From NCBI GenBank assembly GCA_963704015.1, contig CAVPGI010000011.1, positions 106,613-170,612 on the forward strand: a stretch of DNA of 64,000 nt. Reading direction: 5' to 3'. The notes beneath the pieces were generated by a model. The model had not been told where the DNA came from. It saw nothing but the letters and a program-made list of their open reading frames with translations, and ran no database searches. Shown one piece after another: positions 34,795-42,499 of this stretch. Both the position numbers and the translations under genes were made by a program. Within the stretch, counting starts at the first letter, position 1. Every line of letters starts with the position of its first letter. Origin of the DNA: an uncultured Gemmatimonadales bacterium (GTDB lineage Bacteria > Gemmatimonadota > Gemmatimonadetes > Gemmatimonadales > GWC2-71-9).

Positions 34795-35358
34795 ATGGCC
34801 ATCAACGCCACTGAAATCCGCCGCGGCATGTCGATCCTCTTCGAGGGGGAACCGTGCCGGGTGGTCGACTTTCGCCACCATACGCCCGGGAATCTCCGGG
34901 CCATGGTGCAGGCCAAGCTCAAGAAGCTTCGCACCGGCAACACCTTCGAGCATCGCTTCCGGGCCACCGACTCGGTGGATGTCGCGTCGCTGGAGACCCA
35001 CGAGCTCGAGTTCCTGTACCACGCGGCGGACGACTATCACTTCATGAATACCGAGACGTTCGATCAGCTGGAGCTGGACGCCGAGACGCTGGGGGACGCC
35101 GCCAAATGGATGAGCCCCGGCATGAAGCTCCAGGCCGAGTTCTTCAACGGAAGGCCCATTGGCATCCAGCTGCCCAACGCGCTGGTGCTGGAGATCGTGG
35201 AAACGGCGCCGGTCATGAAGACCGCGACCAAGACGTCCTCCACCAAGCCGGCCAAGCTCGACAACGGGGTCACGGTCAACGTGCCCGAGTTCCTGCAGAC
35301 CGGCGAACGGATCCGGGTCAATCCGGAGAGCGGGGAGTACATCGACCGGGCAAAATAG
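34795..35358 (+). CDS. efp: translation elongation factor P (PGNLR loop variant)
   Basis: EIRRGM, FLY, FMNTETFDQ, KPAKLDNG, VPEF, GEYIDRA. Confidence 0.95.
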   Translation: MAINATEIRRGMSILFEGEPCRVVDFRHHTPGNLRAMVQAKLKKLRTGNTFEHRFRATDSVDVASLETHELEFLYHAADDYHFMNTETFDQLELDAETLGDAAKWMSPGMKLQAEFFNGRPIGIQLPNALVLEIVETAPVMKTATKTSSTKPAKLDNGVTVNVPEFLQTGERIRVNPESGEYIDRAK

Positions 35359-37554: not shown

Positions 37555-38747
37555 GCGATCCGCTCCGGTTTCTGACTTCGATGGGGCAGGCGCTTGCGAG
37601 CATGTCCCTCTACTCGAGCGGCCATCCGGCTCGCGAACGCGCCATTGACGCGTCGTTCGAGCAGCTGCTCAACCTGGTCGCCACGGACGCCAACGCCCAG
37701 GTCTCCTTCATCGACGGAGAAGTGGTCTACAAGGGGCAGGTGATTCGGGAGCTCAAGGAGTGGGATTGGAGCACCAAGCTGGCCAAGATCGGGGTGCAGC
37801 GTATCGAGTTCGTTCCCCCGGTGCAGCGGGAGGACTTCGACGGGTTCCTGAGCGACGTGCACGAGCGCCTGAGCCAGGCGTCGATCGACACCGCCGAAGC
37901 GCGACAGATGGGGCGGCCCAGTATCCGGTTCGGGGCCATCGGCGTCCGTGGGGCGGAGACCGAGACCGCGGTCACGATCGCCACCGCCACCATCGCCTAC
38001 AGCCTGCGCGAGGAGGCCGAAGCGATCGCCTGGATCCACGAAGAGGTGGAAGGGGCCGATTCCCTGCCTCTCCTCGAGGCGGAAACGGTGGTGCGGTCCC
38101 TTTCGCTGGCCATGCACAGCGAGAGCCAGATGCTGCTGCCGCTGTTGCAGCTCAAGGAATTCGACCAATACACGACCACCCATTCCAGCAACGTCTCGGT
38201 ACTCGCCATGGCCCTGGCGGAGCAGCTTGGTCTGGGCCCCAAGGAGGTCCGCGAGTTCGGGGTCGCCGGCCTCCTCCATGATCTGGGCAAAGTGCGGATT
38301 CCCAAGGACATCCTCACCAAACCCGGGGCTTTTACCGACTCCGAGCGGGCGCTGATGCGCCGGCACCCGGTGGACGGCGCCAAGATGATTCTGGAGCGCG
38401 AGAAACGACTGGACACCGCAGCGGTCGTGGCCTACGAGCACCATATCATGTTGAACGGCGGGGGCTACCCCACGTTCAAGTTCCCCCGGGATTGTCATTA
38501 CGCGAGCAAGCTGGTCCACGTCTGCGACGTGTACGATGCCCTCTGTACCAACCGCCCCTACCGGGAGGCGTGGCACTCGGAAATGGCGTTGGCCTATCTG
38601 GAAGAAAAGGCGGGACACGAGTTCGACGCAGATATCGTCACGGCCTTCTCCGCAACGGCGCGCAATTCCAGCTTCCAGCGCGTGGTGCTCGAGGAGACCG
38701 GCGTCGATCAATCCCCCCCAACTACGGCTCGACCTGCTTCGCCTTGA
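37551..38747 (+). CDS. HD-GYP cyclic-dinucleotide phosphodiesterase
   Basis: YTTTHS, LLHDLGK, EHHIMLNGGGYP, CDVYDAL..RPYR. Confidence 0.92.
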   Translation: MSDPLRFLTSMGQALASMSLYSSGHPARERAIDASFEQLLNLVATDANAQVSFIDGEVVYKGQVIRELKEWDWSTKLAKIGVQRIEFVPPVQREDFDGFLSDVHERLSQASIDTAEARQMGRPSIRFGAIGVRGAETETAVTIATATIAYSLREEAEAIAWIHEEVEGADSLPLLEAETVVRSLSLAMHSESQMLLPLLQLKEFDQYTTTHSSNVSVLAMALAEQLGLGPKEVREFGVAGLLHDLGKVRIPKDILTKPGAFTDSERALMRRHPVDGAKMILEREKRLDTAAVVAYEHHIMLNGGGYPTFKFPRDCHYASKLVHVCDVYDALCTNRPYREAWHSEMALAYLEEKAGHEFDADIVTAFSATARNSSFQRVVLEETGVDQSPPTTARPASP

Positions 38748-39609
38748 CCAGGGTGGGCGGGCTCCCCATGGCCCACTGGACCAGGAAGCGATCTCCCTCC
38801 GTGAGCGAGAGGTACCCCGAGCCGGACACGGTGCCGTGCGGCATGAGCTGCATGAAGCCGTCGAGCCCGTAGACATCCATGGTCAGCCGATAGCTGTGAA
38901 ATCCGGCGGGCACGCTGGTGACCTCGAGCGCCGTCGGACTGCGCAGGTTGGAGACCTGCCCCACCAGCTTCCCATCGATCCAGACCTTCGCTTCCCGCCC
39001 GATGTCGTCGTCGCCCAGGGGGGCCGTGCTCACCGTGAACCGGACCGGTTCGGCGTAGCCGCTGACCGGGCCGTTCTCGATTCCGGTCTCCCCCGTGGGC
39101 CGTAGCCAGCCGTTCGCCCCTTGGTCGGGCAGGCAGCTCAGGATGCGGGTGGCCCGCTGGGCACCGGTGGGGTGGAAGGCATCGAACCGGAACGGCCCCA
39201 GGCGGGTGAAGAACCGGATCGCCGCCTCCACTGCCTCCCGATCCCGCCCCCCCAGTTGAGCGGCGGCGTAACAGTCCGCCTCCAGCTCCTGGGCCTGCAA
39301 CAGAGAATCGCGGACCCCGTCGCTCATCCCGGCCAGGCCCGCCCGGGTGTGGTGATACTGAAGATGGCCGTATTCGTGAGCGAGGAAGAACGCGGCGAGA
39401 CGCGGCCCGTAGCGATTCAGCAGGCGCGGGTTGTAGTAGATGGTCGGCTCGGCATCATCCACCGCCGCGATGGCCACATCCGGCAGGGTATCGACCGAGA
39501 TCTCCAACACGTTGGGTATCAGGTGCAGGCCCTGAGCGGCCGTGGTCGCGGGAGCGGCGGCGAGGCCCAGCAAGAGTACGGGCAGGCGGGCACGGAGCGG
39601 GACCCCCAT
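38722..39609 (-). CDS. exported HExxH metallopeptidase-like protein (M48-like) with extra beta domain
   Basis: FFLAHEYGH, QELEADCYAA, HPTGAQRA; signal peptide. Confidence 0.75.
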   Translation of the reverse strand: MGVPLRARLPVLLLGLAAAPATTAAQGLHLIPNVLEISVDTLPDVAIAAVDDAEPTIYYNPRLLNRYGPRLAAFFLAHEYGHLQYHHTRAGLAGMSDGVRDSLLQAQELEADCYAAAQLGGRDREAVEAAIRFFTRLGPFRFDAFHPTGAQRATRILSCLPDQGANGWLRPTGETGIENGPVSGYAEPVRFTVSTAPLGDDDIGREAKVWIDGKLVGQVSNLRSPTALEVTSVPAGFHSYRLTMDVYGLDGFMQLMPHGTVSGSGYLSLTEGDRFLVQWAMGSPPTLVKAKQVEP

Positions 39610-39705: not shown

Positions 39706-40188
39706 TCAGGGCAGGCAGGCGAGAATGCGGGCCGCGCGCTGGGCGCCGGTCGGATGCTCGTGGTCCATCTGCCGGCTTCCCATGCGGCTGAAGAAGCGAG
39801 CCGCCGCGTTTACGGCCGCCCGGTCGATGGGGGCCAATTCTCTCGCCGCGAAGCAGTCGGCCTCGAGTTCGCGCGACTGGAGTAGGGAGTCCCGTCCGGC
39901 GGGCCGCAATCCGAGGGCGCTCGCCCGGGTATGGTGAAAGGCAAGATGGCCGTATTCGTGGGCAAAGAAGAAGGTGCGCAACTCGGGAGTGAAGTTGCCC
40001 ATCAGATCAGGATTGTAAAAGATGACCGGGCGTTGGGAGTCATAGACCGCCACGGCCACGTCCCGCAGCGTTGGGCTCGCGACGAACGACACCCGACTCA
40101 CCGGTTGGGCGGTGGGCGCTACTTCCCCGGTGCGAAACAGCAGCGAGGCTGTTCCGGCCAATGCTAAGACAACGGTCCTGGTCATCAT
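39706..40188 (-). CDS. exported HExxH metallopeptidase-like protein, paralog of the neighbour
   Basis: FFFAHEYGH, RELEADCFAA, HPTGAQRA; SD GGAGG. Confidence 0.75.
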   Translation of the reverse strand: MMTRTVVLALAGTASLLFRTGEVAPTAQPVSRVSFVASPTLRDVAVAVYDSQRPVIFYNPDLMGNFTPELRTFFFAHEYGHLAFHHTRASALGLRPAGRDSLLQSRELEADCFAARELAPIDRAAVNAAARFFSRMGSRQMDHEHPTGAQRAARILACLP

Positions 40189-40235
40189 CCCGCGGTCCTC
40201 CACGGCTTCCTACCGCCGTATCTCCTGCGCCCAGC

Positions 40236-40270
40236 AAAAACGCCCCCGCGCTGACCGGTCGCGGGGGCGT
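40236..40270 (-). terminator. intrinsic terminator, minus strand
   Basis: ACGCCCCCGCG/CGCGGGGGCGT 11-bp stem with TTTTT on the minus strand; no convincing gene upstream. Confidence 0.8.
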
Positions 40271-40460
40271 ATTCCTGAGGCAGCCTATCCGACTACCTGC
40301 GCTTCCTCCCCGAGCCGGGCCCACCCCCACCCCCCGGCGATGGATCGCACCGCCGGCCGCTCATCCCACGCGCCCTCAATGCGAAACTCCGGCGCAGATG
40401 AACGCTCCTCAGGTTCTGTTTTCCAATCCGCCTAGGCACGGCGGCTGGCCTCTGTGCCCT
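40236..40460 (-). ncRNA. candidate structured sRNA or leader RNA
   Basis: Bounded by a sigma54 box and a terminator; long-range stems CCUGAGG/CCUCAGG and CUGCGC/GCGCAG; CCGGCGGUG/CAUCGCCGG hairpin. Confidence 0.45.
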
Positions 40461-40470
40461 CCGATACATG

Positions 40471-40486
40471 AGCAAGCGTCATGCCG
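40471..40486 (-). promoter_or_regulatory. sigma54 (-24/-12) promoter
   Basis: CGGCATGACGCTTGCT, GG-N10-GC with TTGC. Confidence 0.6.
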
Positions 40487-40611
40487 CTCCTCCTGCCTTG
40501 TGCCATGGGCCCTTGTCCAGCCGGTGCGCTGGATCACCCGTGTGGCCGGTTCGACCCCGCAACACCCCCGGTACGACACTTCGGTGTCGTGGATTGATGC
40601 GCCTTTGGGCG

Positions 40612-40639
40612 TTGACCACCGAACCCACGCCGTTACCAT
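40612..40639 (+). promoter_or_regulatory. sigma70 promoter of thiC leader
   Basis: TTGACC, 16 nt, TACCAT just before the riboswitch. Confidence 0.55.
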
Positions 40640-40642
40640 TGA

Positions 40643-42499
<1,857 letters not shown>

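Follow-up and report, generated by a model that had tools for sequence, protein, structure and literature searches.

A conserved leader of a metallopeptidase operon in Gemmatimonadales, probably a sigma-54-driven and ribosome-read transcription attenuator

Is a stretch of DNA with a promoter-like box at one end and a strong terminator at the other the gene of a small RNA (sRNA), or is it the control region of the genes that follow? This question is raised by a locus of an uncultured Gemmatimonadales bacterium (lineage GWC2-71-9), at which an intergenic region of about 600 bp separates two divergent genes. The analyzed DNA, in the following called the window, comprises 64,000 nucleotides (nt) of contig CAVPGI010000011.1 (assembly GCA_963704015.1, positions 106,613 to 170,612), and the element in question lies at 40486-40236 of its minus strand, directly upstream of a tandem pair of paralogous HExxH metallopeptidase genes, presumably for secreted zinc peptidases. 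An earlier inspection of the letters alone (the sequence-only reading) had proposed a new sRNA, either CsrA-sponge-like or with a G-quadruplex, and, as an alternative, an attenuator for the peptidases; all sequence features that it listed are present on the minus strand where it had placed them. The comparison of related genomes leads us to favor, with somewhat better than even confidence, the view that the stretch is the sigma-54-driven, transcription-attenuating 5' leader of a two-gene peptidase operon and is probably read by ribosomes. Most likely this control region would decide whether transcription continues into the peptidase genes, and a ribosome on a short open reading frame (ORF) appears to be the likeliest reader of the switch.

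Conservation, promoter and terminator of the element

All genomes that were compared are metagenome bins. The bin of the window (G000) comprises 3.31 Mb and is 69% complete, a relative of the same genus g1 (G001) is 95% complete, a third genome (G008) is 100% complete, and all three carry the element. A BLAST search with the 451-nt region against 61 related genomes retrieved a full-length match only in the same-genus genome; two remaining matches of 22-34 nt were taken as chance. The alignment with G001 spans the whole region with 78% identity, which reaches about 92% in the part that begins with GAACCTGAGG and ends with GGCTGC, and the terminator is kept. Among 151 genomes sampled from the family, 25 (15 of 78 genera) encode orthologs of the peptidases, and upstream of many of these orthologs box, leader and GC-rich hairpin follow each other in the same order. 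A pattern scan of 401 genomes matched 50, of which 25 were judged to be true copies based on an internal ACGCG motif and a span that is constant at about 96 nt, and these were single in each genome. Furthermore, 66 peptidase loci were collected from metagenome bins of Gemmatimonadales and Gemmatimonadota. With a covariance model built from the 137-nt core, 37 of these loci gave full-length matches with E < 1e-8 and one more gave a weak match, whereby the E-values are rough and the model-based alignment is biased toward the supplied structure. Pooling with earlier loci resulted in 46 matches and 43 distinct copies, all of which immediately precede the same tandem pair of metallopeptidase genes.

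No Rfam family matches the element. Rfam searches of the whole window at gathering scores and of positions 39900-41100 at E-values up to 10 reported only a thiamine pyrophosphate (TPP) riboswitch on the opposite strand and a tRNA-Phe, Rfam 15 yielded nothing plausible for 40236-40590 on both strands at E-values up to 10, and in 16 related loci nothing besides the neighboring TPP riboswitch was found at E-values up to 1. Gemmatimonadota are abundant in soil and wetlands and are known mostly from metagenome bins. To our knowledge, no regulatory RNA has been described for this phylum, and a literature search for one found none. Judged from the comparison, the element is one copy of a conserved, so far undescribed Gemmatimonadales family, and conservation has been shown for the promoter box, the geometry of the short ORF, two hairpins (P1 and P3, see below), the terminator and the gene linkage. 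Of the sequence-only reading, the predicted, partly structured RNA of about 225 nt without a known riboswitch consensus is supported, and it is conserved.

The predicted transcript start near 40460 is based on a sigma-54-type box (CGGCATGACGCTTGCT, 40486-40471, minus strand) with GG at -24 and GC at -12. The sigma-54 consensus, similar to TGGCAC-N5-TTGCW, has GG and GC exactly 10 bases apart, and CGGCATGACGCTTGCT has this spacing. The 3.31-Mb genome contains the loose pattern GGCAY-N5-TTGC 32 times, compared to about 60 chance occurrences estimated from base composition, and therefore the motif by itself proves nothing. However, all of the 40 copies that extend far enough upstream have a GGCAY-N5-(T/A)TGC box, 38 by the first pattern plus L135 and L152 with GGCAC-N5-TATGCG, while three copies end at contig ends. 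The box is located 116-255 nt upstream of an invariant GCCGGGG. G001 keeps 18 of the 20 bases of GCGGCATG(A/G)CGCTTGCTC, with diverged flanks on both sides. The genome encodes RpoN, one of the checks that had been recommended (one Sigma54_DBD match, 214 bits), as well as nine strong enhancer-binding proteins (Sigma54_activat matches above 170 bits). From these observations we infer transcription from the sigma-54 box. In addition, 28 peptidase-homolog loci lack the core element, and nine of these have a box within 400 nt upstream in sense orientation, versus one on the other strand. The promoter is therefore assigned to the peptidase genes, with the leader in between.

At the other end of the element, an intrinsic terminator is predicted at 40270-40236 (ACGCCCCCGCG-accggtcag-CGCGGGGGCGU, minus strand), with an 11-bp stem of -24.1 kcal/mol and a U-tract (T5). 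As had been noted before, it is strong and ends 47 nt before the peptidase ATG at 40188, and no promoter-like site was found in between in the window. Box and terminator are kept in all copies. The terminator hairpin has the form GCCCCCGCG-loop-CGCGGGGGC throughout the family, with CCCCCGC/GCGGGGG as an invariant core and covariation in the outer pairs (CG 24, AU 9, GC 6). The Shine-Dalgarno sites of the peptidases are strong, with a mean of -8.4 kcal/mol over 39. Three such hairpins are present in the genome of the window and this one alone has a T tail; a simple terminator scan missed it, which is attributed to the 9-nt loop. Matches of the covariance model outside the family mostly consist of the terminator hairpin alone. 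At three loci (L094, L113, L114) a GCCCCCGCG/CGCGGGGGC hairpin follows a sequence that looks like the 3' end of 5S rRNA. As the same hairpin ends other transcription units, it seems to be a common or preferred terminator type in the order, and its invariance is therefore not specific to the element. The 3.3-Mb genome contains 10 perfect 8-bp hairpins followed by T4, and canonical intrinsic terminators are seemingly rare there.

The attenuator alternative of the sequence-only reading is supported. The other proposal of this reading was an sRNA. In this explanation, the element would be a free-standing, trans-acting sRNA with its own sigma-54 promoter and terminator, and the peptidases would be expressed separately. 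Promoter and terminator indeed bracket about 225 nt, and terminated attenuator RNAs can act in trans, as described for rnTrpL in an excerpt of PMC6614838. However, the distance from the hairpin to the peptidase ATG is only 24-78 nt in the copies examined, with the absence of a promoter-like site from this interval in the window, and some peptidase genes without the element have the box in front of them as well. The two special forms of the sRNA are rejected. Like CsrB and RsmZ, the element has several GGA triplets in an RNA of a few hundred nt between promoter and terminator, but the nine triplets are at chance level (6.5 +/- 2.1 in shuffles, 17% of which reach nine), their positions are not conserved, and csrA was not found in three carriers, G000 (69% complete), G001 (95%) and G008 (100%), which argues against a CsrA sponge. 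The G-tracts are not enriched either (eight tracts of at least three G versus 9.6 in shuffles), the run occurs only in genus g1, and no G-quadruplex motif with loops of at most 7 nt was found in G000. We regard a free-standing sRNA as improbable, although the terminated leader may have a role in trans.

The short reading frame and the RNA structures

Between box and terminator lies a short ORF of 34 codons (LRRSFALRARGMSGRRCDPSPGGGGGPGSGRKRR, 40397-40293, minus strand), which begins with a CUG at 40397-40395 behind the Shine-Dalgarno sequence GAGGAG (40410-40405) and ends with a TAG at 40295-40293. A 23-aa ORF with an ATG at 40364 had been mentioned as an alternative to a structured RNA; this alternative came closer than had been assumed: the 23-aa ORF is the in-frame 3' part of the conserved 34-codon frame. 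All 13 short-leader copies, which represent six lineages (g1, g34, g16, g8, g8b, and L135/L152), contain a GGAG-type Shine-Dalgarno sequence, a spacing of 5-7 nt and a CUG in frame with the stop, resulting in 29-34 codons. This rule holds despite a lineage-specific frame across the invariant GCCGGGG. An ATG 30-33 codons before the stop is found in 27 of the 30 long-leader copies (exceptions: L137, L145, L124), and the ATG is 49, 52 or 55 nt away from the core, in steps of three. The stop is 26-34 nt away from the 5' arm of the terminator in 41 of the 43 copies and 44 nt away in two g8 copies. For comparison, only 6 and 9 copies, respectively, contain a stop in the other two frames at a distance of 20-50 nt from the arm; in most copies these frames continue through the terminator. 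TGA, TAG and TAA are all used, and TGG at that triplet was not seen in the aligned rows. L137 and L138 have an earlier TAA, and the triplet at the usual place of the stop has degenerated into TAC or TCC. Taken together, it is likely that the ORF is translated and matters.

Could the peptide itself be the product, i.e., a functional micro-protein, so that the conservation of the RNA would reflect a gene plus its terminator? ORF length, start and stop are conserved, and a C-terminal R-x-G before the stop recurs in several lineages. On the other hand, radical amino acid replacements occur throughout the short peptide, different lineages read the invariant GCCGGGG in different frames, a synonymous excess is seen neither in g1 nor in g13, and four of the short peptides had no NCBIfam match at E-values up to 1. 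A micro-protein is thus a very improbable explanation.

The large folded domain that had been proposed for the RNA did not withstand comparison. Its closing helices CCUGAGG/CCUCAGG (40413-40407/40280-40274) and CUGCGC/GCGCAG (40397-40392/40302-40297) can be formed in the window, but the 3' arm of the former is lost in G001, so that the outer helix of the domain of about 140 nt is not kept even within the genus, and the outer helices in general are not conserved. RNAalifold, applied to MAFFT and model-based alignments, revealed only P1 (or P2, see below) and the terminator and no large closed domain, and the minimum free energy of the 231-nt RNA was no better than that of shuffles (z-score -1.18). 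The 5' hairpin GGCAC/GUGCC (40458-40454/40439-40435, within 40458-40435) is present and in G001 its paired columns change from C-G to U-A and from A-U to G-U, but it is genus-specific and absent in other genera.

In contrast, the inner 9-bp hairpin of the earlier reading has gained support as P1 (CCGGCGGUG-cgauc-CAUCGCCGG, 40356-40334, minus strand, -14.8 kcal/mol). Its 3' arm lies within the invariant GCCGGGG. The collection of homologs upstream of orthologous peptidase genes, which had been suggested as a check, showed that P1 and the terminator covary in the 43 copies; together, 92.6% of their cells are paired, and the covariation score was reached by none of 500 shuffles. The five basal pairs of P1 show only C-to-U changes that keep G-U pairing, the sixth pair occurs as UG, CG, GC or GU and is unpaired in 23 of 43 rows, and the extended stem contains an exchange from G-C to A-U between g1 and g34. 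A possible helix P2 between the run GCCGGGGGG and its partner GGGCCCGG (40338-40315) holds the genus-specific G-tracts; by pairing GGGG with CCCC it overlaps the 3' arm of P1 and competes for CCGG. Between the ORF stop and the terminator, a variable hairpin (P3) is formed by many unrelated stems. It reaches -4 kcal/mol or lower in 33 of 43 copies (mean z -1.84) and is weak in g1. Finally, element (c) (GAAGCGCAGGUAG, 40305-40293; ACGCGG..GGCUGA in the remaining genera) ends in the ORF stop and is similar to the terminator 3' arm, so that it could pair with the 5' arm. In this competing pairing, the column pair 61-116 is AU in 22, GC in 14, GU in 4 and otherwise composed in 3 copies.

Proposed mechanism and comparison with known systems

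The following mechanism would combine these features. A sigma-54 RNA polymerase, together with an enhancer-binding protein, would start near 40460 and produce a leader of about 225 nt that carries the ORF, of 34 codons here and 29-34 elsewhere, with its CUG behind a good Shine-Dalgarno sequence. The 3' half of the ORF would cross the conserved G/C-rich hairpins and stop about 28 nt before the strong terminator. Most transcripts would end at 40236, and the peptidases would be made only upon terminator bypass. Where the ribosome stands on the short ORF would determine which of the competing G-rich and C-rich segments pair: at the stop codon, it would cover the segment that is able to hold the terminator 5' arm, so that termination would follow, and slow or absent translation would free this segment and allow read-through. 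The sigma-54 signal often is nitrogen limitation. A check of translation or amino acid supply would thereby be added to the sigma-54 signal before secreted peptidases are made.

Several observations weigh against this mechanism. All evidence is comparative and drawn from sequences, and the transcript start, its end and read-through are thus inferred. Bacterial ORFs rarely start with CUG. In the long-leader copies, the ATG is not preceded by a properly spaced Shine-Dalgarno sequence, with values of mostly -2 to -4.6 kcal/mol that resemble random positions. ORF length and stop position are conserved across genera, but the peptide sequence is not. Within the 23-codon part, a comparison of G000 with G001 shows four non-synonymous changes and a single synonymous one, and the variable positions of the g13 copies have no third-position bias. 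No regulatory run of one codon is common to the lineages; arginine makes up about 6-26% of the peptides, and an arginine-sensing attenuator was considered and dropped because a shared codon run is missing. The U-tract after the hairpin is interrupted in many relatives.

The competing pairings and the promoter also have their weak points. P2 is 82.5% paired yet shows almost no covariation, and therefore it is not established. The covariation of columns 61-116 involves about five changes on the peptidase tree and is not significant; this tree and its counts include two rows, L163 and L178, that are wrong ORF picks (branch length 10). When element (c) is paired with the 5' arm of the terminator, 26 of 43 copies do better than shuffles, but the pairing is no better than chance in the window (z = +0.52), in G001, in g16 and in g8. 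An antiterminator is thus plausible for much of the family, but it is not supported for the genome of the window. Furthermore, no conserved enhancer site was found, and no inverted repeat upstream of the box is common to the genera. The perfect palindrome ACGACAC-cgaa-GTGTCGT (40590-40573), which had been noticed earlier, is present in the window, but it is degraded in G001, and no shared repeat was seen at this place in the other genera. It is thus not conserved, and its role as an enhancer site is not supported. In long-leader genera, the box abuts the -35 element of thiC on the other strand. For nasR, an excerpt of PMC12591593 describes a sigma-54 promoter that is functional without a nearby upstream activating sequence.

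Leader-peptide attenuation is the closest known mechanism and the nasF leader is the closest known architecture, and the element differs from both. The trp, his, phe and ilv attenuators contain a short leader ORF that ends shortly before competing hairpins and an intrinsic terminator. In ribosome-mediated attenuators the peptide is poorly conserved and the geometry is conserved. The element resembles these leaders in the proximity of the ORF stop to the putatively competing hairpins and the intrinsic terminator, and in the conservation of geometry rather than peptide. In contrast to them, it has no run of codons for a single amino acid, starts with CUG in six lineages, has a sigma-54 promoter and precedes genes for secreted peptidases, and an antiterminator, a feature of these leaders, is supported only in a part of its family.

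The nasF operon of Klebsiella oxytoca has a sigma-54/NtrC promoter and a factor-independent leader terminator, and NasR mediates antitermination, according to an excerpt of PMC12591593. The element shares the promoter followed by a leader terminator that has to be bypassed, and thus the two stacked layers of control. In contrast to nasF, it contains a conserved short ORF, and it regulates, if the proposal is correct, peptidases instead of nitrate assimilation genes. The targets of ANTAR proteins, such as NasR, AmiR and EutV, have two hairpins with hexaloops in which base 1 is A and base 4 is G (excerpt of PMC12591593). None of the 28 distinct P1 loop sequences, the commonest of which are TCAACC, TCAATG and GGAATG, has both of these bases. 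A search for ANTAR genes matched none of five genomes, but it was uninformative because the control genomes were silent too.

The nasF case is also the precedent for a different reader. The element could be a cis-acting attenuator or a riboswitch that is read by an RNA-binding protein, as nasF is by NasR, or by a small molecule, the ORF being incidental or auxiliary. The sigma-54/NtrC promoter, the leader terminator and protein-mediated antitermination of nasF (excerpt of PMC12591593) fit such a leader, and so do the most conserved bases, GCCGGGG, CACCCC, ACGCGG and GGCU, which are kept whatever their codon position, the lack of peptide conservation and the long-leader copies without Shine-Dalgarno sequence. 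However, ORF start and stop are maintained by differing codons and frames, which is not predicted by a model that considers the RNA only. The conserved structure is small, with two or three hairpins and no elaborate junction, it is single-copy and bound to one operon, unlike most riboswitch classes, it matches no Rfam family, and the P1 loops miss the ANTAR hexaloop rule. We therefore think that a leader read by a ligand or a protein is unlikely, and prefer the ribosome as the reader.

If the ribosome-read attenuator is true, the production of secreted peptidases would be tied to a sigma-54 signal and to the translation status of the cell. The element would be a testable case of two-layer control of extracellular proteolysis, by sigma-54-dependent initiation and then by attenuation. 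It would suggest that leader-ORF attenuation extends beyond amino acid biosynthesis operons, and it would be a conserved example of a regulatory ORF that is initiated at CUG. For annotation, the element would mark the true 5' end of the peptidase operon and warn against calling an sRNA gene at this place.

Related leaders, the operon and its neighborhood

The leaders of a sister family, f2 (L087, L088, L089, L091, L093, L112, L116; n = 7), reach model scores of up to 49.9 bits. They resemble the element in several respects: in 7 of 7 cases an ATG ORF of 27-33 codons has its stop 28-35 nt before a terminator of the GCCCCCGCG/CGCGGGGGC type, a hairpin is found at the position of P1, and a CGCGG..AGGCUAA motif is present. 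Five of the seven f2 ORFs end in RRRG or WRRG before the stop. In contrast to the element, the f2 leaders have a sigma-70-like promoter (TTGACA..TAGGTT), precede a different gene that starts with MRKHYLLVSDFDQTLSFND, and lack the GCCGGGG/CACCCC pair. The f2 leader may be another attenuator of this design, and the geometry that it has in common with the element points most strongly to a reusable module in the order. Tentatively, and with less confidence than we have in the single locus, a family of ribosome-read attenuators in Gemmatimonadales may be envisaged that has a fixed geometry and various promoters and genes. Its members would have an ORF of 27-34 codons that begins with CUG and a strong Shine-Dalgarno sequence or with ATG, a stop about 28 nt before a conserved GC-rich terminator and no codon run; this description is equally tentative. 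The constant ORF length, about as much as the ribosomal exit tunnel can accommodate, would leave room for a sensor based on the nascent peptide or on a pause at termination.

Two further arrangements were observed in other genomes. A weak model match of 30.7 bits with a similar terminator (L107, G110:C1:1058354-1058465) lies upstream of a Cys-rich small ORF (MKRCPEMCRCKCMCTPRGVDCASA...) that is unrelated to the peptidases. In genus g19 (L020, L021), an ORF of 43-44 codons replaces the core element between TPP riboswitch and peptidase. This ORF (MSAALILILGTLIVVLAARGRRSTAPVPVHTGTGRNRNRGRRV) encodes a hydrophobic N-terminal half and an Arg-rich tail, and the sigma-54 box pattern had no match at the L020/L021 locus.

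In the window, the first peptidase gene (39706-40188, minus strand) is preceded by the Shine-Dalgarno sequence GGAGGA (40201-40196) and encodes 160 aa with an HExxH motif. The protein matches Peptidase_M78 with 27.6 bits and, weakly, M48; a comparison of the peptidase profile with solved structures gave weak matches, the nearest metallopeptidase-like chain being MJ1213 (E = 0.04). Judged by eye, its N-terminus looks like a signal peptide. The second gene (38722-39609, minus strand) encodes a paralog of 295 aa with 55% identity to the first. It is the last gene of the operon, which thus consists of two genes, because the gene downstream is convergent.

On the plus strand, outside of the element, follow a sigma-70-like promoter (40612-40639), the TPP riboswitch (40643-40742, 60.1 bits in Rfam versus a gathering score of 54.3) and thiC (Pfam ThiC_Rad_SAM), the in-frame ATG of which was placed at 40790 from the sequence. 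Rfam found the opposite-strand TPP riboswitch in 13 of 16 related loci, so the divergent thiC neighborhood is conserved too. In long-leader genera, the thiC -35 element (TTGACC) lies immediately next to the -24 element of the sigma-54 box, which is on the opposite strand (GGTCAATGGCACG), and therefore mutual interference of both promoters might occur. At a distance of 5 kb from the element, the gene for elongation factor P is located at 34795-35358 (plus strand). The short ORF of the window encodes the Pro/Gly-rich sequence PGGGGGPG, and a tie to the nearby elongation factor P is probably coincidental.

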